From the NCBI GenBank assembly GCA_015494465.1, contig WGBD01000001.1, positions 180,477 to 244,476 of the forward strand: DNA of 64,000 nucleotides, written 5' to 3'. Each line of letters starts with the position of its first letter. The first letter of the stretch is position 1. The DNA is from Candidatus Omnitrophota bacterium (GTDB lineage: Bacteria > Omnitrophota > Gorgyraeia > S143-82). The notes under the pieces were generated by a model. It was not told the DNA's origin, ran no database searches, and saw nothing but the letters and a program-made list of their open reading frames with translations. A program made the position numbers and the translations under genes. Below are positions 8,097 to 47,546 of the stretch, one piece after another.

Positions 8097-8233
8097 ACAC
8101 CAACCTCCTTTGGCCTGACGTCCTTACGCCGTGTGCCGGGAATCAGAGGGTAAAACGAACCCGTTGTCCCTTGCACCGCATTTTTGAAGGGACTGGCGGT
8201 ATTTTATTATAGGAAAAGGGAATTGTAAAGGCG
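8097..8233 (-). promoter_or_regulatory. pckG 5' region: Shine-Dalgarno AAGGAGG (8103-8110) and candidate sigma70-like -10 TATAAT (8206-8211) on the minus strand
   Basis: The minus strand reads ...TTTACAattcccttttccTATAATaaaatacc... upstream of the RBS. The -35/-10 spacing is non-ideal, so the promoter call is weak. Confidence 0.3.
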
Positions 8234-11200
8234 TTAGACCGCAGTCTCAAATGCCCGGCGAACCTCCACCGGCGGGGCCTTATGCCACAGACGGAACCAC
8301 AACCCACGCCACCTCTGATTTATCACTATCAGGCCATCGCGCAGGCGCCTCCACAGCCTGTACACCCCGTACATAAACGGATTCCTCTCCCATATCTCTC
8401 TGGTAAGCCACCAACGCCACTCCTCTGCCATCTCGAACAAACTTATCCCGAACATACTCAAGGACTTTACCTCCTCCGGCCACTTCCGGGAGGCGATGTC
8501 CATCAACTCCTTTATCCGGTACACCTCCATACCCGGTATTATCTTGGCCACCACCCGGCCCACATAGTAGGAGATGCTCTTGCGGTAGACCTGAGATATT
8601 AGACTGCTCATGTAATCGAACATGGAGAAGAACAACTCCTCTTTGCTGGCAGTCGGCCTCAACTGCCTCTCTATCCCGAAGTGCAGGCCTGCCCTCAGCA
8701 TTATCCTGCTCGCCCGGCCGTTCTCCAACAGGACCGGGTGTATATAGAGGATGCCCTTATCCGCATCCATTAGCATAGGCCTCTCCGCCATCCGTATCTC
8801 CCTGTAGCGCAACAGGGCGGTCAGTATCTCATCCTCGCTATAACCCTCTCTCACCAACGCGTCCACGACATCCTTCAATGCCCTCCTCATGTGGAGGCTA
8901 TCCCTCACCCCTTCTATCCTGATGGAGTCTATCGCATCGGTGATCCTTGCCCTTGGAGAGAACAGGCCCAGTAGTTCTTCTTTGAAGGAGGACTCGTCCT
9001 CCCTCATTGCAGAGGCATCCAGGACCAACACCCCGTTATCCAGAAGTTGCACCGCCTTTGCCCCCTCCGGCCTGTCCTCTACCCAGATCAGAACGTAATC
9101 CGCTCTCACCCCCGCCTGCCTGAGCCAGAACCTCACCTTCGCCTCCATATGGGCCATCTCCATCCTGCGCAAGAGCCCAGCCTTGCGCACATCCACCAAG
9201 ACCTTCGCACCCGGCCGGACCTCCCTCACCGAGACCTCAAACCTTAAGCCCGCATCCTTACGCTTCAGGGGTGCCACATCTATACCCATTCTCGTTCCGC
9301 GGAACCAGTTCCTCACCCTTGCCTTCAACCTCATCCACACACCCGCATCCGACGGCCCGGGCACCTGCCTAACCCGGCCCCTGCTCCTCACCCCCTGCAG
9401 GGCCAGGCGCACGGGCACGATCACATAGGTAAGTCCAATCCAAACGGTGTATACCGCCATCAAGGGTATCGCCATAATCACCGCCAACGGACCCCTATCA
9501 AACAGGGCCCAGAACCGGGAGGGCCTCAAGCCCGGCATACCGTACTTCTGCTCGAGTTCGTCCTCAACCTTGACCAAGGCATTCAGGACATCGCGTATCT
9601 CCTTCTCGCTTATCTCCACTTCATCCAGATCCGGGACCTCATCCTTGTAGGCCTCCAGTTTGCCATATAAGGTCATTTCCAAATTATGCAAGGGGACTTT
9701 CCGCTTTTTTTCTTTGTTGAGTATATACTTCTCATTTACAAACGCCCAGTACACACCCGCAATCTTGGGGTTCCTCTCCAAGATACCCGCAACCCTGTCT
9801 ATAATCTCGTCCTTCACCGACTCTATCATCCCGTTCTTGGCATACAGGGTAACATAAGCAATCAGTATCTCGGAGATGGTGGTGGAAAGTGCCCGGGCCC
9901 TGTCCTCCCACTTCTCCTGTGCCTTCTTCGTCTCTTTCTTCTCTTCTTTGCCTTTCTCGTTTACCGACGAACCACCTGCACCCGCTTCACCTTTGACCTT
10001 CTCTTTCTTTTCCTCTTCTTTCTTCCCTTTTTCTTCCTCTAAGTCCGGTAACTTCGGCCACCTCGCCAACATCGCAAACAACGGTCCGGCGGAGATCCTG
10101 CGGTAGATCGCATAGGGATTCACCGGGGCCTTCTTCCCGACCTCGTAGTTGTACAGTTTGTAAGGATCGAGGAGGAAGACCCTGCGCATAGTATCTCCCA
10201 GCATCAGGCGGGTAATCACTCCTTCAACCGCATCCGCAACGCCGTACCAGTAGATACGGCCAAGTTGCTTTATCCTAAACAACATTCTGTATCGACTCTC
10301 GCCATTCGCCATCAACACTCCGGCCACCCATCCCAGACCTGCCCCCAGTATGGCAAACGGCCAGAGAGAAAGGACTCCCAAAACCCCCGAACCCACGATG
10401 GCAGATCCAATCAACGACTTTATTCCCATAACCACACCGGGGAGCAATACCGCCCCTGCCACCGCCCCGGCAATCGCAACGACCCTGCCCCCCTTGCCCA
10501 GCAACTCCCACAGGTTCTTCGTCGGCCGTTTATCCGCCGGATTCATAAGGGCAGGACCAAGTGCACCCGCTATCGGCATAAAGAAGGTCACACCCCAGAG
10601 CACCATCTTGAGCGGAGATGCCCCTGCGAACAGGAAGGTCAACAGGGATATCAGGGCGTACTGCTTTATCGTGCGGTAGGCTATGCCGTATATCCGCTTC
10701 TCCGGTGCGTAGGCAAGTTGGGCACCCTTTCCGGGCGTAGTGATAAACCGGGCGTACATCTTCATACCCACCTGCCCCACGCTCTCCTCGTACATAAACA
10801 GCCAGTGCACATAGGCCCAGTACAGGCGGGCGGGTATCTCCTTGAGCATGTCTTTTATGCCCCTTTTCCAGCCCTTTCCGAGGATACGGACATGGTAGAG
10901 GAGGAGGTTGATGTTTATCGCCTGAGAGAGGAGCAGTCCCGATATCCACAGGGCAAGCGGAGTAGCGGTAAACGGATTCCAGTCCAGTATCAGGAAGGCC
11001 AGAAGCGCCCAGCGGATGTACCGGGTGATAAGGACCTTCTTGGTGTAGAAGCCAAGACCGTCCAGCCAGTAATTGTTCAGTATGTAGGCCCAGGAACTGG
11101 ACGGTGCGAGCATCATGTTGATGCTGTATCTGCTATAGGCACTCTCCGGGGCATCCTGCGACCACTTATAGACCGGAGTTGCCGCGTCCACATACTGATA

Positions 11201-14200
11201 GGGCCAGGCCTTCTCTATAATCATAGACGGATTCTGACTCACATAATAACCCACCGGATACCTGTCTCCTCCGGTGAAGGACTGGAAGGCAATCACCGTC
11301 ATAAGGTCTTCTGCCACATAAGAGGTCGTGGCGCCTTCGGACCAGCGCATAGGGGTGGTACGGATGAAGAACTTACCGTAGGCACCCATACCGCCTATCT
11401 CGTACTTGCCGATGTGGGAGGCATAGAAACCTTCTTCACCAACCGGCAGAACCTTACCGATGATGCCAAATCCTTTGCTCATATGGTGGCGTATCTTGGG
11501 TATCGTCGCGGAGGCGTAGGAGTCAAAGCGATAGTTCATCAACTCCCCAACCTCTGCGAACTGGTTCTCCGGCCTGAAGGCGTGGTCCGCATCCACTGCC
11601 AAGATGGCCCGGGAGGTACTAAGCGGGACCACCGCTGCGAACTGATTCCACTTGGCCCCGTGGAACTGTTCGTTACTGCTCATAATGAAGGGCATAGAAT
11701 CGGTGGCAATCACCTCGTAGAGGAACCGCTTAAGGCCATGCGTCGCTATACCTCCATTTTCACCAATCACCTTACCGGGCACCCTGGCATCCTCTATGGC
11801 CCCCTGCCCCTTCTCCCAGAGATCCCGCACCCTCTCCGAGGTCTCCATCGCGCCGTAGAAAAACCTCTTGTAGGTATCTACATCCTTTTCTAAGTCGAAA
11901 ATCTCCTCATTCTGAGCCACATTCATGTGCGGCTGGAGCAGACGGGACACCACCCGTATGCGGGAGGAAAGGTACAGGTCTCGCACTTCCCTCTCACTGA
12001 GTTTAGGTAGATCCTCTTTCAACCTCTCCGAGGCCCAGTCGTAAAGGAGCTTCCCTTCTTCGTCAGGGGTATACCCCTTCTTGAAGGCATAGGATATGAC
12101 GGTTTCGGGCAGTACCGCCTTGTAGTTGACCATCTCCTCCAGTCTATCCCTCACCGACTCCTTGTTGAGTATCAGGGTAGCGGTGTAGACCCGATTCAAT
12201 GCCCACCGGGCGGTGGAGGTGGTGTTCACCGCTGCCTGAAGCCTGCGGTTGGCCCATACGGTCAACAGGTTCAACGCCTTCTCCACCCCCTCGGTCTTTG
12301 CCTTTTCTCCGAATAGTTTTTCAAGCCAGGTGTGCACATCGGGAATGTCTTCAGGCCTGTCCGCATAGGCAAGGAGATCGTCCAACATCTTCTCCAAATA
12401 AGTCCACTCCGGACCTTTCTCCCTCATAGAGCGGGCATAGTCCTTCAGGGCAACAAACTCCTCCCGCTTCTCCGGCACGGACAGGAGCAGGCCAATGCGA
12501 GAGACCATATGGTCCTCATTCTCATTCTTTGCGAATAGTTCGTTTACGGTGAAGAAGGGCAGTTCACTATATCCGTTGTGCACGATTATCTGATTGTCAA
12601 ACTCGCTTGCGCTTCTATAAAGCGTCAACCCGCCCCTGCGCAGGAGTTGATTGGCAAAGTCCCTGAATCTGGACTTGATGGCCCCGTTCTTCAACAGAGC
12701 ATCCAGCAGGCGCTCCAGTTCCGCCCGGTCTACCGCACCAAACCTGTCCACATCTATCTCACCGTCTTCTCCTCGAGTTATCCCCATGGCCCTCTCCAGT
12801 TGCCTCACTACCTCCGGCGAGATGAGCATCTCTCCCTCTTCCGTCGAGCTCATCGCCTCCAGCACCAAGGCGAACTTGACGCGATTCTCCTCTCCCAAGG
12901 TAAGCCTCGTATTCACATACCCGACCCTCTCGTCGGTCAAGAGGTCTACGAGAGCCCTGCGAATCTCCTTGGGATTATCGCCCACCGCGTAGAGGGCCAT
13001 CTCGTTCATCGTCCTGAGGCCCAGAGACCCCATGGTCAGATAACTCTGGCTAAACGGCGTGAGCACCACCATGGTAAAGAAGGCAAGGACATAGGCACCC
13101 ACCGCCAGGGCGTACCTGACTGGATCCGGGATTTCTATCACCGTAGAGGGGATTACAGGAGCGTGGAAGGTGTGCAAGACCACCGCCCCCGCCAGTGCCA
13201 ACAGGGCAAGACCCAAGATGGTCTGGGCCAAGATGAGAGACCTACCGGTCAACCTCCGTTTGACCTGCGTATCGTAAAGCGCAACTGAAACCACCGCTAT
13301 CGCACCTGCCAGAGGCAGACCGACCAGAGACCGCAGGTCCACACCCGCAGGCACACCCACATTTACCACATCCCAGTCGAAGTAAGAGCCTATCAAGAGG
13401 GCCAGTCCCAGAGAGGAGAGCATTATCGCCAGATGGGCGATCCGCCTCATCCTCTCCTTATAGGTAAGGTTGTTTACTGCCCCTTGAGAGAATATCCTGC
13501 CCATGTTCTTCCAGACGAAGCCCAACTCCTTGAACTTGTACTCCCAGATGTTGAACCTCCTGCCGGTAAGGATTACATCCCCCGCGTCTATCAGGGCCTT
13601 GTAGAAGCGGAACATCGCACGGTCCAGTTCCGCAGGGGAGACCTCCTTGCCCTCGGCTATGGCCACGAGGGTGTCCTGCAGGGCCTTAGCGGACTCCCGC
13701 ACCTGCGCGCTATTGCCCTTATAGAGGCCACGGTTGACCTGATTCAGGTACCTGAACACGATGTTCAGGACCTCCTCGGTCATCACCCTGCCCTTGCCCC
13801 TTATAAGCGTGGCTGCGTCCCTCTGGGTCTCGTGGGCAGAGATGTTGCTGGCCATTACCTTAATCAAGACCGAGCGGAGATTGCTTATCTGAGGAATCAG
13901 AGCGTTAACCGCAGAGACGATGTCCTCATCGTATATCCTCTTGGAGACGATGTTCTCCCACAGCCACTCCTCAAACCTGCCCTGAGAGGTGAGGGAGTAT
14001 ATCCCCCGAGAGATAAGGGCATTCATACCCAGCCAGTACCTCACCCCGTGCAGGGCACCGTAGGAGAACCGGCCGTACTCAAAGTCCACCGGATAGGGAT
14101 TCATGTCGTCGGTGTAGTCGAAGATGAAGAGGTCCTCTTTGGCCAGTTCTTCTTCGCCGGGGAAGTCCACGACCTCCACCTTAAGCCGTGGCCTTCCGTT

Positions 14201-17200
14201 AATCTCGGTAAGGCCGTCGAGGAAGCGGTTGAACATAGAGGCCCGCATGTTCACATAGTACTGATTGAGATACGGATCCTTCTTCCAGCCCTCTGCGGAG
14301 AAGAACTCGTCCATCCGATCTGCCAACTCTTGCTTATAGGCATCCGAGGCGAGGATGTATCCAAGGGCGATGGACAACAACCTCCTCCTGCCCACCTCCT
14401 CGTCCATACCCAAGGCCTGCAGGCGCTTGGCAGAATCGCGCAGGTCCTCTTCCATCTTCCTGCGCTCCTCATCGCTTAAACGGCCTGCAAACCTCTTCAG
14501 GAAGCCACCAAGATTCTCCCTGCCCGAGGAGATCCAATCAATAATCCCGTCTAGATCGGAAACTCCTCTAAAGGAATCCCAGGCCACCGCAGGGAGAGAG
14601 AAGTTGCCTATCCGGACCAACTCCCGTGAGGCCCTCATCAAGGCCTTCTTTGCCTTGGGATACTTACTCAGATCCGCACCGGAGAGGGAGGCAAGTATGA
14701 GCGCAAGGGTAAGGGCCTGCAGATCCTCCCTGCCTTCCAGTTTATCCCTCAACTCCTGCCAGGAGACATCCTCACCCAATCCCAGTCTATTGCGCACCTC
14801 ATTGACGAAGCCTCCGCCTCTCAGGAAAGCGACCTTCTCGTCATCGCGGTCCACCTGATAGCGGGTCTTGAACATTGCCTCCACGAACTCCAGAGAATTG
14901 CGGAAGCCAAGCGCCCTCTGTCTGGCCATCATAACCAATGCGGTCTCTTCCTTGCTCAATCCCAGTTCCTGAACCTGGCGCCAGGTCATAGAGTTGAGGT
15001 TGAGTCGGAACTGGGAATACATCTTACGCAATTGCTTCCTGCTCAGCCAGTAGACCACCGGCACCCCGAACACCGCCACCAGCATAGGCAGGACGAACAG
15101 GAGCCCGCCTATCCAGAGGTACCAGAAGGCAAAGAGACCAACAGCAGTCGGCAATATCACCCTATAGGCCTCAGAAGGAGAGAGCTGTTTGGTCAACAGC
15201 CCTACAATCGCCCCCAGCCAGTTGCGGTTCCCCTGCCAATCCCGGGCAGTGCCTTCTTTCGGTTTTGCCTTTATCGGTTTTTCCAGATCCGGAGTCCTGT
15301 ACTCATCTTTATGCCTTATTACCTGTTCCACCGCGGAGGCAAAGTAAGGAGAAAGCTCCTCAGCCAGATGGGAAACCGCCTCGGTATCCGCAACCAATTC
15401 ACCTTCCTTGAGCACCTTTTCGAGGATTCCCTCGGGTGTCCCTACGGGGAAGATGCCGAACAGGATCTTACCGAGGAAGGAGTTGCGGAAGTAATCCCAG
15501 AGGTGAACGAAGGTTGGCACTCCCTCTGCGGTGCTCATGTCTCGAGTGAGCTGGGTAGTAGAGTAGATGAGCACCCCGTTCCTGAGCAAGATGTATTTCC
15601 GGCCGAGATCCTTGGTGCTCTTCTGGTACTTGTGGGTAGGGATAACCTCTATCGCGGTGTAGTCGTTGCCCTCTTCGTCCTGCCAGACATACCTCTTGAC
15701 ATGGAACTGCTCAAACCACTTACCTCTATTCGCATCGTACAGGTATTCCGCCAAGGCGTTCCCGTTCTTGTCCACGAAGGAGACATAATAGAGATCCCTA
15801 TCACCGTAGTACCTGCGGATGTAGATCCTGGTCCCCATGGGCAGATGGGTATCACCCGGATTGCGAACTTCCAGGATAAAGGTCTCGGCAAACTCGGCCC
15901 GGTTCTTCTCAAACCCTATTAGGACGAAGGAGACATTACCGATCTTGACCAACCTCCTGGCACCACCCTGAGCAACCCTGTGGAGGATTTCTGCCTTATC
16001 GCCTAGGATCTGTCGCACCTGCTCTACTTCGGATGTGATCTGACCTATCCTGTAAAGCGATCCCTGTAGGATACGGCGGGGTACGATCTTGCCGTTTTCC
16101 CTATCCACTTCCACGGACAACTTGCCAACAGGATTGCTCAAACCGATGTCGTAAGTGCCCATCAACAGGACATCTACCCAGCGACGAGGCTTATACACCT
16201 TCCAGTTACCGTTGACCTCTCGTTCAGCAACAAGATCTCTAACCACCACATTCACCATCTTAGCCAATACTTGTCTTGCCCCTTCTCCCTGTAGATGCCC
16301 CAGATCGACCTGTTTCAGGAAGAAGTGCAAGGCCTTATCGTCCAGAAGGTCCAGATACGCCCTTTCGTTCATCTCGGTCCAGACCTTATAGATCTTGTGA
16401 TTGACGAGATCGATCTCGTAGCCCATCACCGGGAACTTGTCCAACCACTTTCCGTAAAGGGTTATCGACAGGATCTCGCCCTTTTCGTTAATCTCCAACC
16501 TGCCTACCTCTCTCGCTGCCGGATCGCCTGCCTTCACGAGAGATACGATTACCTTGCCGTTAGAGACCACCCTCGTCCGACCCAAGCTAAGATCCGTACC
16601 TCGCAACCTGGCGAACAGCTCTAACATCTCTTTGGAGACCGTAGGATCTATCCCCCGTATATTCTGGAGTATGTGCTTTATAAGTGAATCCCCACTCATC
16701 TCTCCAAAGGACTCCAATTCCGCAATAGTGCTCTCTTTCCCGGGACCTCTCAGTACCCACTTTCCTTTACAAATAGTACCTCCTATCGGAGGCTGAACTG
16801 CCACACCGGTAGCCGGAATCGGGAAGGCCTTTTCTTTACGACTCTCCGACATGATCTTCATCAACTGACCAAACGGATTGTTGGAGGCACGATAGTCCTG
16901 GATTACCATGCTCTTGTCAAAGTAGATCACCTGAGCAGTCACGAAGACATCGCCGTCTTTTTTGGAGACATCCGCCTGCACGATCTTACCTACATTGATC
17001 CAGTTCCCCTCCGTCAGCTGATACCTCTCCATAACCACCGGCTCGCTCAACAGGAACTGGCGAGGCAGGAGCATCACCGGCGGAACGAGTCCTTTCTCAT
17101 CCACCACGAACTCCACCAACTCCTGTCCCAAGGCATTATCCTCGGGCACATAAACCTTTATGTGATCCATACCAGAAATAGGATTGCGCCTGATGGTGAA

Positions 17201-39601: not shown

Positions 39602-39635
39602 CCCTTACACATCCACGATCATAACCTATTGCTAA

Positions 39636-40538
39636 TCAACGGAATCCGCCGAACACATCTCCTTTCATAAACTTTAAAATAACCGGTCCTGCTACCACTA
39701 TAAGTATAACAGGAAGGATAAAGAAAAGCAAAGGGAAAAGCATCTTGATAGGGGCGGTCATCGCCGCCTCCTCCGCCTTCATTATCCTATACACGCGCAT
39801 CTCGTTTGCCTGTATGCGCAGGATCTCCCCTATAGGGGTCCCCATCTTATCTCCCTGGATCAGGGCCCGAACGAATGACGACACCTCAGGCATATCCACC
39901 CGCCAGGCCATGTGCCTAAGTGCCTCGGCACGGGATCTTCCCATCTGGATCTGGCGCCAGACATGTGAGAGCTCCTCAGTAACCGCACAGGGTTTGTAGT
40001 CCCTAACCACCCGTTTCACCGCCAACATAAAGTCCATACCCGCTTCCACGCACAGTTTTAGCAGATCTATCACATTGGGAAGCTCTCTGGATATCTCTTT
40101 TCTTCTCTTGGCAATCCTATTGTTAAGCCAAATGTCCGGTAATATAAACCCTATGAACACCAATAGGATAGCGAGATCTGGCGAAGGGAGGTTGCCGATC
40201 AGGAGATAATACAATACGGGCACCAATAACAAAGAGAGCTCTTTGATCGCCATGAACTCGTTGACGGTAAGCGGAACATTAGCGGTAATAAGTTTACGGT
40301 TTATTTTTCTCTTAAGGTTGCCTAAAGGAAGAAGATCGTTTAGATTGGCTATTGGTCGCAGTAGTAATAAAAGTGCCTTCCAGTGTCCCCTAAGGCTGGC
40401 CAGTGAGCGTATGGCCTCCTCTTCGGACCACTCTTCGAAACGATGTCTTATTTTAGTATCTACCTTTCTGGAATAGAGATAACTGTACATCATCGCTGTC
40501 ACGAATAAAAAAATAGAGAGAACTACTAAAACTATCAT
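39636..40538 (-). CDS. tadC: Tad pilus assembly inner-membrane protein TadC-like (T2SS F-domain family)
   Basis: 300 aa with an N-terminal TM, a cytoplasmic T2SSF-type helical domain, and C-terminal TM helices (LFPLLFFILPVILIVVAGPVIL). It is paired with a TadB-like gene. Confidence 0.7.
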   Translation of the reverse strand: MIVLVVLSIFLFVTAMMYSYLYSRKVDTKIRHRFEEWSEEEAIRSLASLRGHWKALLLLLRPIANLNDLLPLGNLKRKINRKLITANVPLTVNEFMAIKELSLLLVPVLYYLLIGNLPSPDLAILLVFIGFILPDIWLNNRIAKRRKEISRELPNVIDLLKLCVEAGMDFMLAVKRVVRDYKPCAVTEELSHVWRQIQMGRSRAEALRHMAWRVDMPEVSSFVRALIQGDKMGTPIGEILRIQANEMRVYRIMKAEEAAMTAPIKMLFPLLFFILPVILIVVAGPVILKFMKGDVFGGFR

Positions 40539-40542
40539 ATTG

Positions 40543-41397
40543 TTAGACCTCCACCTTCCCCATGACCCTCATCGTAATCAATCCCAGTATCTGAGATACA
40601 ACCGCATATACCAAAAGCAATTGCCCAGTAGGATCTTTAAAGAATATGTCGAAGTGATGTGGATCTTGGTGGATGACGAACATCACAAAGAAAATCGGCA
40701 TAGCGCTTATAATCATCCCCTGCCAGCGCGCCTGAGCAGTCAAGACCTCTACCTTTCTCTGAAGCATCTTCTTTTCTCTGATCATCTGGGCCAAATTGGA
40801 AAAGATCTCCGTCACATTTCCCCCCGTATCCCTTGCTACGAGGACCGAGATAACCACGATGTCTACATCGTCGTTCCGTATGCGTGCCCTAAGCCGATTT
40901 AGCGCCTCTTCTAAAGGGATCCCCATCCTGAGTTGTTGGAGGATCAAGGCAAACTCTTCCCGGGTTGGGGACGGCATCTCTTCTACGACGACCTCAAAGG
41001 CCTGCCGTAAAGTTAGTCCTGCCTTTAAAGCTGACGACAATAGGGCCAAGGTATCCACGAGTTGATCAACAAACTGTTTTCTCCTTCGCTCTTCAAGGGC
41101 CCTTACCACGAACACAGGCAGGAGGGCCCCAACCGCTGCTCCTAGCAAAGCAAACAAGGGATTTGCAAAGAGAAAAAACACTATTATCCCGCCTCCGACC
41201 ATCGACAACACATATAGCATATTCAGGGTCTTTCGTTGTACGGGAAGGAGCATGCCCTCAAGAAGAGCCTCGGTCTGACGAATTTGGGCCTCCCGAACCC
41301 TAGAGTATCTATGCGCCACCCCCGGAACTAACAGCAGAGTAAGTGAGGCCACTGACCCGGCTATCAAAATGAGGATAACAATAAGAAAAGGATCCAT
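40543..41397 (-). CDS. tadB: Tad pilus assembly inner-membrane protein TadB-like (T2SS F-domain family)
   Basis: 284 aa with T2SSF-domain signatures (ALKAGLTLRQAFEVV...; ARDTGGNVTEIFSNLAQMIREK) and an N-TM, helical domain, C-TM topology. Confidence 0.7.
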   Translation of the reverse strand: MDPFLIVILILIAGSVASLTLLLVPGVAHRYSRVREAQIRQTEALLEGMLLPVQRKTLNMLYVLSMVGGGIIVFFLFANPLFALLGAAVGALLPVFVVRALEERRRKQFVDQLVDTLALLSSALKAGLTLRQAFEVVVEEMPSPTREEFALILQQLRMGIPLEEALNRLRARIRNDDVDIVVISVLVARDTGGNVTEIFSNLAQMIREKKMLQRKVEVLTAQARWQGMIISAMPIFFVMFVIHQDPHHFDIFFKDPTGQLLLVYAVVSQILGLITMRVMGKVEV

Positions 41398-41416
41398 CTC
41401 CCCCCTCCCCCCGGCG

Positions 41417-41659
41417 TTAATTATTGTTTATCCGAAGAACTCCTTTGGTAGGACCTCCACCTCCGGAAATATCATCCGCGCTAACTTCGCCAAAGACCGA
41501 GACCACCGCAGATCGATTGCGACCCAATAATATAGATTTAAACAAATTGGCCATGACTACGATACCCATTATTACCGCAACACTTAGTACCATGTATTCT
41601 ATAAAACTAAAACCTCTACGGTCGTTATCGTGCAACGATCTACTCTGCATCCTTACCAT
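41417..41659 (-). CDS. Flp/pseudopilin-like small protein with class III signal peptide (G/FSFIEY)
   Basis: The ORF track extends it to 41779, overlapping the upstream gene. The internal ATG at 41659 gives MVRMQSRSLHDNDRRG|FSFIEYMVLSVAVIMGIVVMANLF, a G-X4-EY prepilin motif followed by a hydrophobic helix. Confidence 0.5.
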   Translation of the reverse strand: MVRMQSRSLHDNDRRGFSFIEYMVLSVAVIMGIVVMANLFKSILLGRNRSAVVSVFGEVSADDISGGGGPTKGVLRINNN

Positions 41660-41670
41660 AAACGCCGTCC

Positions 41671-43344
41671 TTAATTGCCTTGGATCCACCAATTGTTCGT
41701 AGTTGGACCTCTGTGCTTTTTTGCGTAATATCGAGCCCGGGTAGTAAAGCAATAGCCATTCCTGCAAGCCCTTACCCATACCACTTGCTTACAACGCTTC
41801 ACCTTTATCTTAACCTTGGTAAGTTTCTTCTTGACCTTTATCTTAGGCATCTTGAAACTCACTCTCACCTCAAGAGAGTGACGCCTCCCTAACTTATCCC
41901 TCCAAGAATATCTAAAATCATTACCCCCGACAGCATAACTTCCCTCACCAAATGCTTTCATAAGGAGGTCCCTATACTTATTTTCTATCTGGTTTATCCT
42001 GTCCATAAACCTATCCATAGAGCTGGAAAAGGCCATCAGACTAGCGATCAAACGCTCCTTGAGTTTGGTATACTGCCACTCAGTCATATATACATCTTCT
42101 CCCTTGCTGGTTCTCTCGTATATATCTCTAAGCATCTCTAAATAATTACTCCCATGTACGAACTTCTCTGCGTGGCTTCCTACCATTAAAGGACTTACCG
42201 TTGAATTAGAGACCACCTTTACGCGCCCATACCTGCGGATTTCCTTCCAACCACTCCCCGGTCCAAACGAACGAACTCGCTGAATACTATATGTACCTTT
42301 TAGATCACTATTTCTTATCGTGTCGACAGCGATATTAACGAAGCGCTTCATCCGCTCAAAATCCCGCGAGAACTGACCATCCTCGTCCTGCTCCTCAGGA
42401 TCCCAGTCTTTAATAACCTGCAGAGCCTGGACTGGGTCTACCTCTTTTTTAGCTAGGGCCCACATCAACCCCGCTAGGCTCATCTCTGGATTGGTTCCTG
42501 CCCCGCCATATAGTACCGCACGAAGGTAATCAAAGCTCGAGAGACTAAGAACGGGGTTGACTTCATCTTCGTCCGGCTCTATTGCTTCCGTATAATAAGC
42601 AGGCTGATCCATGTTAGTCCCTGCCAGCTTATCCCACAAGCTTAAGGCCTCAAGGAGATCTTCTATCCACCCTCCTTTACCAGGTGAACCAGCATACCCA
42701 GGCAAGCCGGAGTAATAATAGTAAGCCTTTATGATCTCTTTTCTCATTGATCCCAGAACGCCGTCTAATCCGCCATTATTATTACTCCCTGCGGATCCAT
42801 TTATAGCTGCCTCCAGGGCTTCGCTCAGTTGGGGAATAACTTCTGGATCAGCCAAGAGCTGTGCCACATAAGAGATAGTACTCCAACGAAGAACATCCCT
42901 CACGTTGGATAATCGTTTAAAGGCAGCCCTGAGCCTTTTGACAGCCGCATTCGTAACGACCTCATCCGCTACGAATGTAGCCAAACCTGTTGTTGAAATG
43001 GCTAAGGCCCAATTAAGACCTACTATGCCGAACCCCCCTAAGAAGCCACCTAATATAGACAGCCCTAGGCCTACAATAGCACCCCACCTCCTCTTTTTCT
43101 TCTTACACTTACACTTCAGATACTTACAAGCCAAGTAATGGGCATAACTGCCCACTATTGATCCCAAATACATCGCCCCTGCATCGGCGGCTATTTTGGC
43201 CTTGGTCTGGAAGTATTTTTTCTGGGCATAGAATATCCCTACAGAACCGAGAAAGAACATAACCGCCATAACTAACAGCAGTACAGCCGCTATCTGCCCA
43301 GTCTTCTTCTTCAAGCCATAGGGCATTATGTCACTTATCCTCAT
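41671..43344 (-). CDS. TadG-like pilus-associated protein with N-terminal pseudopilin-type anchor and Cys/Lys-rich segments
   Basis: 557 aa. The N-terminus KKKTGQIAAVLLLVMAVMFFLGSV resembles the TadE/TadG N-terminal domain. It also has unusual CKYLKCKCKKKKRRW and C-terminal KRCKQVVWVRACRNGYCF cysteine clusters. Confidence 0.45.
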   Translation of the reverse strand: MRISDIMPYGLKKKTGQIAAVLLLVMAVMFFLGSVGIFYAQKKYFQTKAKIAADAGAMYLGSIVGSYAHYLACKYLKCKCKKKKRRWGAIVGLGLSILGGFLGGFGIVGLNWALAISTTGLATFVADEVVTNAAVKRLRAAFKRLSNVRDVLRWSTISYVAQLLADPEVIPQLSEALEAAINGSAGSNNNGGLDGVLGSMRKEIIKAYYYYSGLPGYAGSPGKGGWIEDLLEALSLWDKLAGTNMDQPAYYTEAIEPDEDEVNPVLSLSSFDYLRAVLYGGAGTNPEMSLAGLMWALAKKEVDPVQALQVIKDWDPEEQDEDGQFSRDFERMKRFVNIAVDTIRNSDLKGTYSIQRVRSFGPGSGWKEIRRYGRVKVVSNSTVSPLMVGSHAEKFVHGSNYLEMLRDIYERTSKGEDVYMTEWQYTKLKERLIASLMAFSSSMDRFMDRINQIENKYRDLLMKAFGEGSYAVGGNDFRYSWRDKLGRRHSLEVRVSFKMPKIKVKKKLTKVKIKVKRCKQVVWVRACRNGYCFTTRARYYAKKHRGPTTNNWWIQGN

Positions 43345-43583
43345 CTCCGATCCTTCCTAAACTCATAAAAGGAAGAGCCCTTATAAGGCAAAGAAATCCT
43401 CGGCAAGCTACTCCCAGGAATCCGGCGATAAAAGATTAACCTGTACGCCCGAAAGCGCTTGTTCATATCAAACGACACCCAACTTATAAAAGAAACCATA
43501 GCGCTTACGAAAAGCGCCAATACTGCAACCGCTATTATGGTATCCAATAACACCTGTCCTTCGTTACCACGAGAAACTCTCAT
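43341..43583 (-). CDS. TadE-like minor pilin / pseudopilin (short)
   Basis: The internal start gives MRVSRGNEGQVLLDTIIAVAVLALFVSAMVSF, a class III-like signal plus hydrophobic helix. The longer track ORF (to 43631) overlaps the upstream gene by 68 nt. Confidence 0.45.
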   Translation of the reverse strand: MRVSRGNEGQVLLDTIIAVAVLALFVSAMVSFISWVSFDMNKRFRAYRLIFYRRIPGSSLPRISLPYKGSSFYEFRKDRR

Positions 43584-44532
43584 CTCCACTACTCCACTCG
43601 TAGCTTTTTGTGCCAGTCCTACTCTCCACATCCCTGTGAATCGTGTAGGGCCCTGTAATCCTCAGCCTCCCGTGGTCACCGTTCACTACAATCTCTGCAG
43701 AGCGTTTATCTCTTTCCACATAATTGTTCCTAAACAGACCCGATAAAGAGTCAAGATCACCCCGCCAGCTCTCGTGCTCAAGATAGTTTATGAGAGAAGA
43801 AATCTCCCCTGGCACATAAGAACCATAGGCAGAATAGAGGACATCCTTCAACTTTTGGAGTTGGTGCTGCCTTTCCCCTGGCGAAAGATTTGCAAAGCTC
43901 CTTTGCACTCCATCCCACTGCTCTAGCCAGTGCCTCACCCTCTGATATACATAACTATCTGCCCCAAAGTCATCCTCTATTCTTTCCAATATCTTCCCTT
44001 CGCGATTCGCTATCTCCTCGTCCGGGGACACGCTTAAAACCAAAAACTGCCCTTCTCTTCCCCGGAGATCGCTCGGCAGCAGTCCTGCTATATTGGGAGG
44101 AGGTAAACCTACTAATTGCCGAGATACATTTTTGCCATCCATGATTATCTTTACTAATGTGGCAGGTTGATCGGGATCGTCGTCGTGCTCCTTCCAGAAC
44201 ATATTCCATGACCAGATAGCACTTGCGGTATCTCTAATTTCACGATAAGCGGGGAAGAAAATATTCAACAGAGATGGGACCCTTCTGTGCTCTATAGCGA
44301 TTTGCATTACTGGTGCCCCTGTGGTCCCCGCGCTAGCGGCAAACTTAACGGTCTCCACAAAATTCCTAATCATCAAATCCTGACGATATACCAAAACAAG
44401 GACATACGAGACGAAAACCGAAGCGATCATCAGTATTATAGTGCCCCAGATAGACAGCTCTACTAAGGCCTGCCCCCCACACGGCTTTGTTCCTCGTACG
44501 GCTGGATCATATCGATGCCTCATATGTCTCAC
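43564..44532 (-). CDS. TadE/TadF-like pseudopilin with large C-terminal domain
   Basis: 322 aa. ...KPCGG|QALVELSIWGTIILMIASVFV matches the TadE N-terminal consensus (G-x-A-x-VE + TM helix). Confidence 0.5.
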   Translation of the reverse strand: MRHMRHRYDPAVRGTKPCGGQALVELSIWGTIILMIASVFVSYVLVLVYRQDLMIRNFVETVKFAASAGTTGAPVMQIAIEHRRVPSLLNIFFPAYREIRDTASAIWSWNMFWKEHDDDPDQPATLVKIIMDGKNVSRQLVGLPPPNIAGLLPSDLRGREGQFLVLSVSPDEEIANREGKILERIEDDFGADSYVYQRVRHWLEQWDGVQRSFANLSPGERQHQLQKLKDVLYSAYGSYVPGEISSLINYLEHESWRGDLDSLSGLFRNNYVERDKRSAEIVVNGDHGRLRITGPYTIHRDVESRTGTKSYEWSSGDESFSW

Positions 44533-44875
44533 TCACCGTCTCCTTCACTTCTTCATTAGCACTTACATGTTCGAGAAGGTCAGAGCTAGCAGCTCCTTCG
44601 TTAACGGGAACAAAATTATGGTATGTAACGACATTCCTGGAGATAGTGCGCTTATATTGAACAGTTCCATCCTTTCCGAAGGGCTTATGTCCCAAACTGG
44701 AGATGAGGCTGTATATCCTGCCTGCAGAAGAGCGTTTCAGGTAAGGCATCATCAACATCACTGCTGCGGTTATCACCATTATAAGCACGGTAATCTCTAC
44801 CGCCGTCTGTCCTCCGCTGTCTCTTTCACATAGACTCTCTAATCGTATTGGATGTCGAAGAGGTAGTCTCAACAT
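44507..44875 (-). CDS. flp: Flp-family pilin paralog (long leader; start uncertain)
   Basis: ...RDSGG|QTAVEITVLIMVITAAVMLM: G/XXXXE motif followed by a hydrophobic helix. The 5' end overlaps the upstream pilin by 50 nt, so the true start may be internal or non-ATG. Confidence 0.5.
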   Translation of the reverse strand: MLRLPLRHPIRLESLCERDSGGQTAVEITVLIMVITAAVMLMMPYLKRSSAGRIYSLISSLGHKPFGKDGTVQYKRTISRNVVTYHNFVPVNEGAASSDLLEHVSANEEVKETVSETYEASI

Positions 44876-45146
44876 ATCTTGCGTGCCCTTCAGATATCTG
44901 GAACTTGCTTACGGTGGTTTGTTTCACTCCGGAAACGGTATTCTCGTTTATCGTGACCCCAATCTCTGCTTCGTCTATCGACTCAACTCGTTGAGTTTTC
45001 AATCCAACTGCCACGAACAGGTCCCTTATCTTTGCTTGTACACCGCGACGATAATAGGTCTGCATAGCAAATATCGCTCCCACAATCGCCAATACCAGGA
45101 CCGCGTACTCAGCTATGCTCTGTCCCGACTTTTCCCCTGCCCGCAT
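44826..45146 (-). CDS. flp: Flp-family pilin paralog (106 aa)
   Basis: MRAGEKSG|QSIAEYAVLVLAIVGAIFAM: a canonical class III signal with E+5, Y+6. Confidence 0.65.
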   Translation of the reverse strand: MRAGEKSGQSIAEYAVLVLAIVGAIFAMQTYYRRGVQAKIRDLFVAVGLKTQRVESIDEAEIGVTINENTVSGVKQTTVSKFQISEGHARYVETTSSTSNTIRESM

Positions 45147-45151
45147 TTATC

Positions 45152-45328
45152 CTATTCTCCTACCCTAATATCGGCGGTTTTGGAGATATCCCTAATCACA
45201 GCTGAAAACTTACCCCGAGCAGAATATAAAACCAAAATAAGGGCTGCGCAGACCGCCCCAACAAAGAGGGCATACTCAACTACTGCTTGCCCAGGAGATC
45301 GCCTACGCCATCTCTTACCAATTCGCAC
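45152..45328 (-). CDS. flp: Flp-family pilin paralog (about 58 aa, probable GTG start)
   Basis: The track ORF 45152..45427 overlaps the upstream gene by 113 nt. An in-frame GTG at 45328 gives (M)RIGKRWRRRSPG|QAVVEYALFVGAVCAALILV, matching the family leader pattern. Confidence 0.45.
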   Translation of the reverse strand: MRIGKRWRRRSPGQAVVEYALFVGAVCAALILVLYSARGKFSAVIRDISKTADIRVGE

Positions 45329-45662
45329 CTTCGGTAATAGATTGTAAGTTGTCAACTTTGACCCCATTGTACCACTCCGTCTGATTGCTCTCGAAAGTAG
45401 TATAGTCTGTACGCTTCTCACCCCCACTGTAGGTCGTCTGGGTGGTTACAGACTCAGTATCAAATTCCTTGTGATATACAACCTGACTCTGACTTGCATC
45501 AGAGTAATCCCACAACTTACCTCCGCCTATCTTCTCGGCAGATTCCCGAGACTTTCCTTGAATAGCCCGCTTAAGATACCCCTGCATGAGGAAGATTGCC
45601 ACTGCGACTATCATGAATAGCACCACGACCTCTATAGTGGATTGCCCTTTTCTCATGGCCAT
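45315..45662 (-). CDS. flp: Flp-family pilin paralog (115 aa)
   Basis: MAMRKG|QSTIEVVVLFMIVAVAIFLM. Confidence 0.6.
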   Translation of the reverse strand: MAMRKGQSTIEVVVLFMIVAVAIFLMQGYLKRAIQGKSRESAEKIGGGKLWDYSDASQSQVVYHKEFDTESVTTQTTYSGGEKRTDYTTFESNQTEWYNGVKVDNLQSITEGANW

Positions 45663-45691
45663 ACCTCCCTTTTCAGGTTATCCTGATCAGA

Positions 45692-46057
45692 TCAATAATT
45701 CCCGAGGGCATCGTCCCCTTCTTGGACTTCATAACTACCCGATTCGTATTCCACATGTGAAAACTGGTTGCTAAGGGCATTTATGTTCTTATCCAAAACT
45801 ACTTGGGAGTTCTGCACTACCTGTTGGTTTATGTTCTTCGTTTCGTAATAAGGCACATACTGAAACTTATCGCCTGCCCCCATACCCAAGGCATTTCGCA
45901 TCATATGTACCATACTATCTTTTTGCCTGGCCTGCAGTGCCCTCTTCACATATAACTGCATAGCCACCGCTGCACCGATGATTATGGCAAACAAGGTAGC
46001 GTATTCCGCTACGCTCTGCCCTCTTTTACTGGACAAGTTCATGAAAGCCATGGCCAA
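45692..46057 (-). CDS. flp: Flp-family pilin paralog (121 aa)
   Basis: ...SSKRG|QSVAEYATLFAIIIGAAVAM. Confidence 0.65.
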   Translation of the reverse strand: MAMAFMNLSSKRGQSVAEYATLFAIIIGAAVAMQLYVKRALQARQKDSMVHMMRNALGMGAGDKFQYVPYYETKNINQQVVQNSQVVLDKNINALSNQFSHVEYESGSYEVQEGDDALGNY

Positions 46058-46073
46058 CCTCCTCTTTAAGAAT

Positions 46074-46240
46074 TAGTTATTACTGCTAGGCGGACTAGTA
46101 TCCACCATTTTACTGAATAAAGCCATCCTGCCATTCACCGCCCGCATAGCGAACTGATACATCACCGTAAAGGCGGCGGCTACTATGAGGAATAAGACCA
46201 CATATTCTGCCATGCTTTGACCTATCTTCCCCACTCTCAT
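46074..46240 (-). CDS. flp: Flp-family pilin paralog (55 aa, not in ORF track)
   Basis: Hand translation: MRVGKIG|QSMAEYVVLFLIVAAAFTVMYQFAMRAVNGRMALFSKMVDTSPPSSNN. Its ATG overlaps the TGA of the upstream gene (ATGA). Confidence 0.6.
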
Positions 46241-46380
46241 GGGCACTTGCTCCCTTTGGTCAAGTCCGCGTGCACGCAGGAATCCATCTTAACAAAGAAC
46301 GAGGTTATTGCCCCAACCGCTGCTGCCACGAAGAGACTCATTATTATTGCGTATTCTAACAAGCTTTGCCCCTTAGACAT
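46237..46380 (-). CDS. flp: Flp-family pilin paralog (47 aa, not in ORF track)
   Basis: Hand translation: MSKG|QSLLEYAIIMSLFVAAAVGAITSFFVKMDSCVHADLTKGSKCP. It starts 2 nt after the stop of the upstream pilin. Confidence 0.6.
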   Translation of the reverse strand: MSKGQSLLEYAIIMSLFVAAAVGAITSFFVKMDSCVHADLTKGSKCP

Positions 46381-46382
46381 AT

Positions 46383-46721
46383 TCATTGAAACAACTTCTC
46401 TTTGTTCAATACATCGAACTCTTTATCCTCGACTCGATTTTCTACATAATAATCGTACGTCTTTGTCTCCACACCTCCCTTGCTCATAGTGATGCTATAT
46501 TCTGCCTTCACATTCTGCACCACATTGAATTTTGTCACATGGTCCGGGCTAAATTGCTCACCCACACTATCTCCGCTTTCTTTTAATCGAGCCATTATAG
46601 CCCTTCTAACAAAGCGGTTCATGGTAAGCACAGCAGCAGCAACAATCATAATAAGCACCACTATCTCTATGGCAGATTGTCCCTTCCTTCTCAATGCTTT
46701 TTTTGAAGCCCTTCCAACCAT
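46383..46721 (-). CDS. flp: Flp-family pilin paralog (112 aa)
   Basis: MVGRASKKALRRKG|QSAIEIVVLIMIVAAAVLTM. Confidence 0.6.
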   Translation of the reverse strand: MVGRASKKALRRKGQSAIEIVVLIMIVAAAVLTMNRFVRRAIMARLKESGDSVGEQFSPDHVTKFNVVQNVKAEYSITMSKGGVETKTYDYYVENRVEDKEFDVLNKEKLFQ

Positions 46722-46747
46722 AGCTTCCTCCCCCTATCCTATTAAAC

Positions 46748-47122
46748 TTACAAAGTTTCGTTCCATCCCCAATCGCTTATATCGGTATTCCCTGCAACCC
46801 CAAGGGTGTTTTCATAACCACTGGTGATTTCCGTAACACTCTGGGTATGTGAAGCGGTCTTTCCTTCCCCGACGATGTTAACCCAACCACTCTGATTGCT
46901 CTTAGTAGTAAGTTGGGACTCTGTATAATACGGCTCGAACTGGACCGTTCCATCCAAGGTCCCATTTCCTGTGTTCACAAGGTGATTTAATACCACAAAG
47001 CGAATAGCCCCTTGCTGGCCCCTCTTTATGAAGATATTCATAGTAGTCACCGCAGCTACCACTAGGAGTATCAAGACTGCGTATTCCGCAGTGCTTTGTC
47101 CCTTTTTATCACTCAACTTCAT
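46748..47122 (-). CDS. flp: Flp-family pilin paralog (124 aa)
   Basis: MKLSDKKG|QSTAEYAVLILLVVAAVTTM. Confidence 0.65.
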   Translation of the reverse strand: MKLSDKKGQSTAEYAVLILLVVAAVTTMNIFIKRGQQGAIRFVVLNHLVNTGNGTLDGTVQFEPYYTESQLTTKSNQSGWVNIVGEGKTASHTQSVTEITSGYENTLGVAGNTDISDWGWNETL

Positions 47123-47161
47123 GGCCTCCCCTCCTTAAACTCTCCACACTCTCAAACTCCC

Positions 47162-47332
47162 TTAATTCACCTGTATCTTCCCTATAGCCTTCGTCATGTT
47201 TTCGGTTAATCCGTTGTAACTGCTTTTGACTTTTGTCTCCAACTGGGCCTTCACTATTAATATAGCTGCGATGATGCCCGCCAAGATCAAGAGGTACTCC
47301 ACTATACTCTGTCCCCTTCTGCTCCTTTTCAT
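47162..47332 (-). CDS. flp: Flp-family pilin (56 aa, first gene of array, not in ORF track)
   Basis: Hand translation: MKRSRRG|QSIVEYLLILAGIIAAILIVKAQLETKVKSSYNGLTENMTKAIGKIQVN. Canonical Flp size and motif. Confidence 0.65.
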   Translation of the reverse strand: MKRSRRGQSIVEYLLILAGIIAAILIVKAQLETKVKSSYNGLTENMTKAIGKIQVN

Positions 47333-47546
47333 GTCCCTCCTCCTCTCGTTTTGGGTCCCATCTTACTATTGCCCAATGGGTTTTGGCCCTAATTTGAATC
47401 GATTAATTAATATTTTCAAATTTCCAAATTTTAACCGCGCAGAGAAAGAGCAAGCCTAAGCCTCTCAACTGCTTATTTCAAGTATAGACGCCATCCCTTG
47501 AGAAGTCAAATTCGCCAGCGCCCCTAAACCTAAACACAACTTTAGT
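47333..47546 (-). promoter_or_regulatory. AT-rich intergenic region upstream of the pilin array (candidate promoter/operator)
   Basis: 214 nt between the hldD stop and the first flp gene. The minus strand reads ...GGTTAAAATTTGGAAATTTGAAAATATTAATTAATCGATTCAAATT..., with AAATTTG direct repeats and an ATTAATTAAT palindrome. Confidence 0.3.

Follow-up and report, generated by a model that had tools for sequence, protein, structure and literature searches.

What drives a tight adherence (Tad)-like pilus when the genes for its pilins and platform are clustered without a motor ATPase or a secretin beside them? This question is raised by a locus in a 64,000-nucleotide (nt) stretch of contig WGBD01000001.1 from a Candidatus Omnitrophota bacterium, which was analyzed over its whole length (hereafter the window) and in which an array of pilin-like genes and a tadB-tadC pair lead into a single 31.4-kb open reading frame (ORF), the giant gene. 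Comparison of this locus with its relatives indicates that in the lineage of the window a block of genes coding for a peptidyl-prolyl isomerase (PPIase), RcpC, a secretin, a TadZ::CpaF fusion ATPase, a DUF192 protein and a protein that we term X is separated from the cassette of pilin, TadB and TadC genes. The reading that we favor, with a probability of roughly 60%, is that the window contains the fiber and platform half of a split system together with the giant gene, and that the secretin and ATPase half is located elsewhere in the genome.

The pilin, TadB and TadC genes form a compact unit with the giant gene

The cluster runs on the minus strand from 47332 to 8234 and contains 17 genes that all have the same orientation, as the initial annotation of this DNA had observed. 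Ten small prepilin genes are followed by three larger pilin-like genes, one additional small pilin gene, tadB, tadC and finally the giant gene. Among the 16 ORFs located 5' of the giant gene (the cassette), adjoining genes overlap by as much as 113 nt or are up to 39 nt apart, and the spacer between tadC and the giant gene is 34 nt long (39602-39635). With no junction above 39 nt, the earlier description of one compact unit on one strand holds. All 16 ORFs of the cassette are intact and are preceded by Shine-Dalgarno-like sites.

A promoter-like site, identified solely as a match to the consensus (TTGACT-17-TATACT; 47481..47509, minus strand), is present within the 214-nt gap 5' of the first pilin gene. 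The number of promoter-like sites in this region is no higher than in shuffled sequences; the position of this particular site is consistent with the conserved 5' edge of the cassette. A terminator-like hairpin at 39568-39587 on the minus strand (GGGCAGAAAAATTTTTGCCC followed by a T-run), which covers codons 5-12 of the giant ORF, was also considered. It is probably a chance occurrence since the peptide encoded there is not conserved in the relatives and such sites are no more frequent than in shuffles.

Motor and secretin genes are absent from the window

Pfam scans of all genes in the window returned no match to T2SSE (PF00437), secretin (PF00263), RcpC (PF16976), CpaE/ParA/CbiA or peptidase A24 families, and a six-frame tblastn search of the same DNA with Omnitrophota RcpC/CpaB and secretin (both from locus L009) and TadZ::CpaF queries likewise gave no match. 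The earlier statement that CpaF/TadA, a secretin, TadZ/CpaE and TadV are absent from these 64 kb is therefore upheld, with all four covered by the Pfam scans, and with RcpC, the secretin and TadZ::CpaF covered by tblastn. The complete Omnitrophota loci L088 and L009 have no A24 peptidase or TadV gene either, so that the missing TadV says little about the window.

Related loci carry an ATPase block upstream of the same cassette

A scan of one genome per species yielded 80 loci. A full form is present in L088, L009, L011, L012, L020 and L091, which carry, in this order, genes for the PPIase, RcpC, the secretin, TadZ::CpaF, DUF192, the ~520-residue protein X, pilins, TadB and TadC. In Omnitrophota, the Tad ATPase consists of ~720 residues in which a TadZ/CpaE-like ParA domain (KGGVGKT) is fused to CpaF (L009:3749-5920, L011:3102-5261, L012:2648-4810, L020:1243-3393 and L088:10001-12166). 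This fusion is very widespread in Omnitrophota, with 7,764 matches at E<=1e-30 and 60-90% identity among the 120 best matches listed, and in nearly all loci the DUF192 gene is located directly 3' of it, L091 being the exception.

Two loci connect the block to an array of the type seen in the window. Locus L097, which comes from a metagenome scan with generic CpaF motifs that mostly yielded non-Omnitrophota Tad loci (our canonical contrast), has the full block joined directly to five pilin genes, followed by genes for proteins of 440, 113 and 720 residues. Locus L015 has DUF192, X, pilins, three pseudopilins, a small pilin, TadB, TadC, a 785-residue protein and a giant. The order of the cassette is shared by L015, L094 and L097. 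Thus, L097 and L015 together bridge the block to the window-type array and indicate that a full locus holds both the ATPase block and the giant gene.

We defined the clade of the window as loci with at least 55% identity in TadC, and regarded as informative those with readable upstream sequence (four loci, the window included). The block is absent in all four, their upstream neighbors all differ, and every one of them has kept the cassette genes. Specifically, the upstream neighbor is an epimerase gene in the window, a PD-(D/E)XK-like gene (recognized by eye) in L005, GH3, TPR and DUF192 genes in L006, and HU and HisRS genes in L094. The cassette is intact and collinear in L005, L094, L093, L008 and L006, where TadC is 55-67% identical to that of the window, and one relative with 95% identity also exists. 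A motor encoded elsewhere is favored because related loci carry the block upstream of the same array and because the cassette stays intact across contexts.

The junction between block and cassette is visibly unstable: in L092 the ATPase block is followed by genes on the opposite strand, and L006 and L017 have kept DUF192 without the ATPase.

In L088 (12567-13049, minus strand) and in L091 (7605-8084, minus strand), an IS200/IS605-type Y1 transposase gene separates the ATPase block from the pilin/platform block, and the gene for protein X is inverted in L091. Such an arrangement suggests a hot spot of recombination, which could account for the split.

The adjacency of TadC and a giant gene is conserved in Omnitrophota

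Conservation of the flp-tadB-tadC-giant arrangement, which the initial annotation had named as a comparative check, was assessed in Omnitrophota-type loci with at least 5 kb of sequence downstream of TadC by counting ORFs of at least 1000 residues that start within 4 kb on the same strand. Of 21 Omnitrophota-type loci, 16 have such an ORF, which in most cases extends past the end of the locus, versus 1 of 24 Myxococcota loci, and the arrangement is also found in Velamenicoccus archaeovorus. Among 163 TadC homologues, those with a named source are from Candidatus Omnitrophica/Omnitrophota or are called "tight adherence protein C", and the nearest non-Omnitrophota relatives of the window TadC are Myxococcota TadC proteins with 37-49% identity. 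Residues that do not vary within the TadC family are retained in the TadC of the window.

In L006 (10995-12821), TadC and the giant gene are separated by inserted ORF6N-domain genes and a ParE/Phd toxin-antitoxin pair. Insertions between these two genes are therefore tolerated, and their adjacency is not strictly one of translational coupling.

The small ORFs have Flp-type prepilin motifs and are conserved one-to-one

The ten ORFs at the start of the cluster code for proteins of 49-124 amino acids (aa) with an N-terminal (K/R)GQ(S/A/T)xxE(Y/I/V) sequence followed by a hydrophobic helix, which corresponds to the Flp G/XXXXEY prepilin motif. The motif is thus found in these ten ORFs and in the small one before tadB, with the Pfam matches of the ten to Flp_Fap, Flp1_like and Class_IIIsignal all falling below the gathering threshold (E 6e-4 to 0.05). 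A G-x4-E prepilin motif is present in 12 consecutive ORFs.

The first prepilin (47162..47332; all coordinates of the cluster are on the minus strand) has 56 aa and the sequence RRGQSIVEY, with sub-threshold matches to Flp1_like (E 5.6e-4) and Flp_Fap (E 5.8e-3) and an ortholog in L005. Next are prepilins of 124 aa (46748..47122; KKGQSTAEY) and 112 aa (46383..46721; RKGQSAIEI), whose orthologs are at L005:1921-2337 (46% identity) and L005:2349-2681 (45% identity), respectively. The start of the fourth gene (46237..46386; 49 aa, SKGQSLLEY) overlaps the stop of the preceding gene by 4 nt. Orthologs are also present for the fifth prepilin (46073..46246; 57 aa, KIGQSMAEY; L005:2824-3036, 64% identity), the sixth (45692..46057; 121 aa, KRGQSVAEY; L005:3074-3427, 53% identity) and the seventh (45315..45662; 115 aa, RKGQSTIEV; L005:3465-3794, 47% identity). 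The eighth ORF (45152..45427; SPGQAVVEY) codes for at most 91 aa, probably has an internal true start, and matches Flp_Fap below threshold (E 0.024). The array ends with a ninth prepilin of 106 aa (44826..45146; KSGQSIAEY; L005:4032-4343, 41% identity) and a tenth of at most 122 aa (44507..44875; GGQTAVEI; L005:4309-4668, 33% identity).

Downstream of this array is a 322-aa pseudopilin-like protein (43564..44532) with a GGQALVEL N-terminus, for which orthologs are present at the same position in L005, L008 and L094, and a small 96-aa pseudopilin-like protein (43341..43631; EGQVLLDT) with orthologs in L005 and L008. Neither has a Pfam match, and their likeness to pilins is confined to the N-terminus. 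They are followed by a TadG-like protein of 557 aa (41671..43344; orthologs in L005, L008 and L094), and an hhalign comparison of this family (three members) with the PF13400 proteins of L088 and L009 gave a probability of 79% and an E-value of 1.6e-5 over residues 11-73, so that likeness to TadG is limited to the N-terminus of the 557-aa protein. The last prepilin gene before tadB (41417..41779; RRGFSFIEY) likely starts at M41 (41659), which gives a protein of ~80 aa, and its orthologs at the same position have 71 aa in L005 and 69 aa in L006. Overall, L005 has collinear one-to-one orthologs for 14 of the 16 cassette genes, with a TadC that is 63% identical, so that the pilin paralogs are of old origin and have each been maintained.

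In regards to the platform, TadB (40543..41397; 284 aa) and TadC (39636..40538; 300 aa) each have one T2SSF domain (PF00482, E 1.2e-19 and 2.2e-14, respectively) and are encoded by adjacent genes, which is the paired single-domain arrangement of Tad systems. The Tad-type assignments of the initial annotation are thus correct as judged by the T2SSF domains, the Flp motif and the pilin-type N-termini, with TadG likeness confined to the 557-aa protein.

The giant protein has a C39-like peptidase domain at its N-terminus

The giant ORF (8234..39601, minus strand) is uninterrupted over its 31.4 kb and codes for 10,455 aa, with the likely true start being an ATG at 39592 located behind an AAGGGG Shine-Dalgarno-like site. 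At this length it falls within the published definitions of a giant gene (>=25 kb and >20 kb) and is short only if residues are counted. A Kyte-Doolittle scan shows ~26 hydrophobic segments that are clustered, as expected of a giant with multiple transmembrane segments. No Pfam domain, SecA_DEAD included, was detected in the protein even when it was scanned in overlapping 1,000-residue pieces, no PDB entry matched its sequence, and self-BLAST showed no internal repeats. Since repeats and Pfam domains are both lacking, we regard the giant as a non-repetitive 'dark' protein and not as a repeat adhesin. The giants of relatives can be aligned only over their first 450-720 residues, at 25-31% identity, where TadC is 63% identical.

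A signal/anchor helix (39521-39577, minus strand) is located just before a C39-like (double-glycine) peptidase domain (38882..39319, minus strand; residues ~95-240) with an invariant Cys107 and His190. Cys107 is one of only two cysteines in the 10,455 residues, the other being at position 7611. When a profile of seven giant N-termini (A2) was compared with PDB it matched C39 domains of PCAT-type bacteriocin transporters at E-values of 0.003-0.04, and the top seven PDB matches all belong to the C39/double-glycine peptidase family. The giant thus has an N-terminal signal and a C39-type peptidase domain, the latter recognized at marginal E-values.

A conserved G-(G/S/A)-(R/K/F) sequence follows the C39-like domain in all seven aligned giants (LRGGF in the window, residues ~248-252, ~38850-38880, minus strand). 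Speculatively, it could be a double-glycine self-cleavage site. A second motif, F/P-E-(N/Q)-x-(S/A)-W-A-x-x-Y-(D/N)-P, is located 3' of the first hydrophobic helix in TadC-adjacent giants (~39512-39535 in the window, minus strand) and was seen in L003, L005, L008, L015, L016, L025, L048 and L006. It resembles a signal-peptidase site (SWA↓Y) and could be a signature of the family. Near the other end of the protein, residues ~9330-9430 (~11300-11900, minus strand) contain AVDADH and YVAEDLMT sequences that by eye look like the DxD and ED motifs found in membrane glycosyltransferases, with a cluster of transmembrane segments adjoining. Neither Pfam nor PDB supports a glycosyltransferase identity for this region.

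A P-loop region of the giant has the motif order of SecA

The initial annotation had placed a SecA-like domain within the giant. Residues 3596-4215 (26957..28816, minus strand) indeed contain a P-loop region with a SecA-type order of motifs, namely GGGKT at 3629, DEEAILRTP at 3765, LSGTL at 3992, GARGI at 4131 and GRINRKEG at 4163. This chain is collinear with motifs I, II+RTP, III, V and VI of E. coli SecA, which are at 105, 209, 390, 507 and 573, and it has a long gap between motifs II and III that resembles the preprotein-binding insertion of SecA. The chain was reproduced in none of 3000 shuffles with patterns that were picked post hoc. No match to this region was found in Pfam or NCBIfam, in PDB using phmmer, or in a scan of JGI metagenomes, and a homologue search with a 900-residue piece returned nothing at E<=1e-5. 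The single match from a HMMER search of 1.84e9 proteins was rejected as a Cna/SpaA-like repeat artefact. BLASTP and hhalign comparisons with E. coli SecA were not significant. A single-sequence AlphaFold2 model of residues 3596-4215 was poor (predicted local distance difference test score of 44.6), and Foldseek comparison of this model with PDB returned weak matches to DEAD-box RecA domains, the best at E 0.013, none of which is significant. What stands of the earlier claim is therefore the Walker A motif and the collinear chain; membership in the SecA family was not detected by profile, sequence-database or structure methods. This is the only P-loop region of a secretion type within the unit, with PEPCK, encoded just 3' of it, also being a P-loop protein. 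More plausibly, the SecA-like region serves export of the giant itself rather than pilus assembly.

Comparison with known Tad and giant-gene loci

Canonical tad operons have the order flp-tadV-rcpCAB-tadZABCDEFG, and the cpa operon of Caulobacter is a related example. The window shares with them the Flp-type G/XXXXEY prepilins and the TadB/TadC paralog pair, and it has candidates for TadE/F/G-type pseudopilins. It differs in that the pseudopilin genes are located before tadB and not after tadC, in that there are at least ten pilin paralogs, and in that a giant gene follows tadC. Also, in the canonical-type tad loci of other phyla that we compared, tadB starts ~60-1,300 nt after cpaF, mostly 200-500 nt, whereas the window has no cpaF.

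A split arrangement is known from the Kil system of Myxococcus xanthus, a Tad-like apparatus encoded by two clusters that make up one working machine for contact-dependent killing of prey (Seef et al., 2021, PMC8460266). As in the window, pilins and a TadB/TadC-type platform (KilG/H) are encoded together in one cluster, with the Kil peptidase, secretin and ATPase encoded in the other. In contrast to the window, Kil cluster 2 has a CpaB homologue beside the platform genes, only ~3 pilins, and no giant gene after TadC. In Kil the ATPase carries a fused FHA domain, whereas in Omnitrophota the fusion partner is a TadZ/ParA-like domain.

A secretion locus upstream of Omnitrophota giant genes has been described (West-Roberts et al., 2023, bioRxiv 10.1101/2023.11.21.568195; see also 10.64898/2026.06.07.730766), and the small class-III-signal genes, the PPIase, the C39 domain and the SecA-type domain are already part of that and later work. 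The suggestion that the window belongs with Omnitrophota-type giant-gene loci is confirmed, both by the Omnitrophota affiliation of its TadC homologues and by this published description. Like the published locus, the window has T2SSF genes and numerous small genes with class III signals ahead of a giant ORF with multiple transmembrane segments, and its neighborhood includes a Rotamase_2 PPIase gene as well as genes for GH2-like hydrolases and for solute-binding/ABC sugar transport. Like the published giants, its product has an N-terminal signal, a C39-like peptidase domain and, by motif order only, a divergent SecA-type ATPase region. Unlike that locus, homologues of gspD, gspE and rcpC are missing from the 64 kb, PEPCK and not PilZ genes are 3' of the giant, the sugar-transport and glycoside hydrolase genes are upstream and not downstream, and the giant itself is without any Pfam-detectable domain. 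The Rotamase_2 PPIase of the window (48629-50005) is encoded on the strand opposite to the cluster and is not orthologous to the PPIase of L088 and L009.

The Tad complex of V. archaeovorus LiM (CP019384.1) has been reported as complete, with its locus at 12382-29832 (Seymour et al., 2023, PMC10066038). We compared this locus (L077) from position 18896 on and rely on that report for completeness upstream. Like the window, its chromosome has small pilins, large pseudopilin-like genes, TadB and TadC, followed 244 nt after TadC by an open frame of at least 3,246 residues. Unlike the window, which has no X, DUF192 or ATPase block, its array is preceded by a homologue of X, and its TadC is 41% identical. 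A 422-aa protein at the 5' end of the compared segment was considered as a CpaF candidate and rejected; it has no Walker A motif and is the homologue of X.

Neighboring genes in the window

On the 3' side of the giant gene are genes for PEPCK, an NYN-domain protein and TrpRS, and riboflavin genes. No intrinsic terminator was found downstream of the giant stop codon. Two sequences at 8201-8250 on the minus strand, each agreeing with a sigma-70-like promoter at 10 of 12 positions, overlap the end of the giant ORF ~110-150 nt 5' of PEPCK, which is therefore probably under its own promoter.

On the 5' side of the array are genes for a heptose-type epimerase, the PpiD-like Rotamase_2 protein on the opposite strand, a two-domain GspF/PilC-type protein, a coiled-coil protein and a ROK regulator, and farther 5' are those for an 861-aa outer-membrane-protein-like protein, GH2-like hydrolases and ABC sugar transport. 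The GspF/PilC-type gene (50015..51085, minus strand), which adds a second platform gene to the inventory of the initial annotation, codes for two T2SSF domains (Pfam E 2.5e-60; NCBIfam GspF E 1.9e-101, below the model cutoff) and has no adjacent ATPase gene. It is preceded by a gene for a 421-aa coiled-coil protein with a weakly GspM-like N-terminus (51100-52365, minus strand), likewise with no T2SSE ATPase adjoining. The 861-aa protein (53770-56355, minus strand) has a signal peptide and ends in YEKDF, an aromatic last residue being typical of outer-membrane beta-barrels, and its gene is surrounded by those for GH2-like hydrolases and sugar ABC transport. No match to Pfam or NCBIfam, no meaningful match to PDB and no secretin signal was found for this protein.

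Discussion

Of the two possibilities that the initial annotation had left side by side, the full-form relatives favor the one in which the missing parts are encoded elsewhere. The window would then hold the inner-membrane and fiber half of a type IVc, Kil-like system, with ~11 Flp-type prepilins, three pseudopilin-like proteins and the TadB/TadC platform. In such a split system the ATPase, secretin, RcpC and prepilin peptidase would be supplied in trans from another locus, the peptidase would cleave the prepilins after the Gly of G↓QSxxEY, and TadB/TadC together with a hexameric ATPase would polymerize the pilins into a short fiber that passes through the secretin. The giant would be inserted by way of its own signal/anchor sequence, and it may act together with the pilus apparatus at the cell surface in attachment or prey contact, possibly with parts of the giant being exposed by the fiber. 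Several points weigh against this reading. Our search covered 64 kb of the 781,960-bp contig and found neither the ATPase nor the secretin nor the peptidase. Among the 120 best TadZ::CpaF matches listed, none is on a contig as long as that of the window or those of its relatives, which carries little weight because the listing stops at ~60% identity, about the value expected for this lineage. The cassette and the giant gene are very probably co-transcribed, as judged by their spacing only, and that the pilus and the giant are functionally coupled is inferred solely from their conserved adjacency.

A split system is not the only arrangement under which a cassette of this composition could function. 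The apparatus may have no dedicated Tad motor and may borrow its ATPase, secretin and peptidase from a different type IV filament system of the cell, for example a type IVa pilus or one like the type II secretion system. The GspF/PilC platform gene located 3 kb upstream indicates that a further system of this kind exists in the genome, type IVa pilus genes are present in most Omnitrophota classes (Seymour et al., PMC10066038), and complete Omnitrophota Tad loci are likewise without an A24 peptidase. We nevertheless regard borrowing as unlikely, given that split TadB/TadC-type platforms normally work with CpaF-type ATPases, that TadZ::CpaF is conserved across the phylum at 60-90% identity wherever a TadBC context is visible, and that the GspF gene itself has no ATPase gene beside it. 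Somewhat less likely again is that the small ORFs do not code for subunits of an extended filament but for membrane proteins with a class III signal, which would join TadB/TadC in a membrane scaffold or accessory complex that inserts the giant or holds it in place; such a complex would need no Tad ATPase or secretin. Ten diverged paralogs maintained as one-to-one orthologs would be unusual for a major pilin, half of the small ORFs (105-124 aa) are longer than a classical Flp, their Pfam Flp matches are sub-threshold and the linkage to a giant gene is strict. However, a full secretin/ATPase block precedes the same array in L097 and, by inference, also in L015 and V. archaeovorus, and a G-x4-E motif and a TadG-like protein typify type IV filaments that are assembled. 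That the cassette is a decaying, non-functional Tad remnant is improbable. The ATPase, secretin, RcpC, DUF192 and X are absent from the 23.5 kb upstream and the 39.6 kb downstream of TadC, as a remnant would predict, but none of the 16 ORFs, which have Shine-Dalgarno-like sites, is disrupted, L005, L094, L093, L008 and L006 carry the same set in intact and collinear form, a relative at 95% identity exists, and the family-invariant residues of TadC are retained.

The other possibility of the initial annotation, that the giant takes the position and perhaps the energizing role of a Tad component, is not supported. Such a role would have the SecA-like ATPase of the giant replacing CpaF and energizing the TadB/TadC platform, in keeping with its being the sole secretion-type P-loop region of the unit and with a motif chain that runs collinear with that of E. 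coli SecA, long II-III gap included, and is not produced by shuffling. However, platforms of the T2SSF type use hexameric PilB/GspE/CpaF ATPases, SecA is an SF2-type translocase, and we know of no precedent for SecA driving a T2SSF platform. Giants also follow TadC in V. archaeovorus, where the Tad complex is reported as complete, and in L015, where DUF192 and X are upstream. Moreover, SecA_DEAD domains are found in most giants irrespective of their context, for which self-export has been proposed (West-Roberts et al., 2023). Since the SecA-like assignment of the window region is one of motif collinearity only, and since giants follow TadC where CpaF is present or inferred, a role as substitute motor is highly improbable. 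We hold in equally low regard the possibility that the ATPase/secretin/RcpC block has been lost from the genomes of the clade altogether, leaving the pilin-TadB-TadC module as an assembly or export device for the giant that is driven by its SecA-like region or by no dedicated motor. If true, a type IV filament platform would have been re-wired to a motor outside the PilB family. Likewise, a complete genome of this lineage with no CpaF-type ATPase would surprisingly reveal a type IV filament platform that works with a different motor.

Loci of Tad or type II secretion-like character next to Omnitrophota giants are already published, and the window is mainly one more example of them. What is new is that the unit joined to the giant is the half that codes for pilins, pseudopilins, TadB and TadC, which has a sharp 5' boundary and moves between contexts as a block, and that a whole sub-clade keeps this half intact without an adjacent secretin/ATPase half. 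The comparative series of loci that explains the motor-less form of the cassette is also new, as is the finding that each of ~ten pilin paralogs is conserved one-to-one between species. As a split system, this locus would provide a second natural case, after the Kil system of Myxococcus, of a Tad machine divided between loci in a putative predator.

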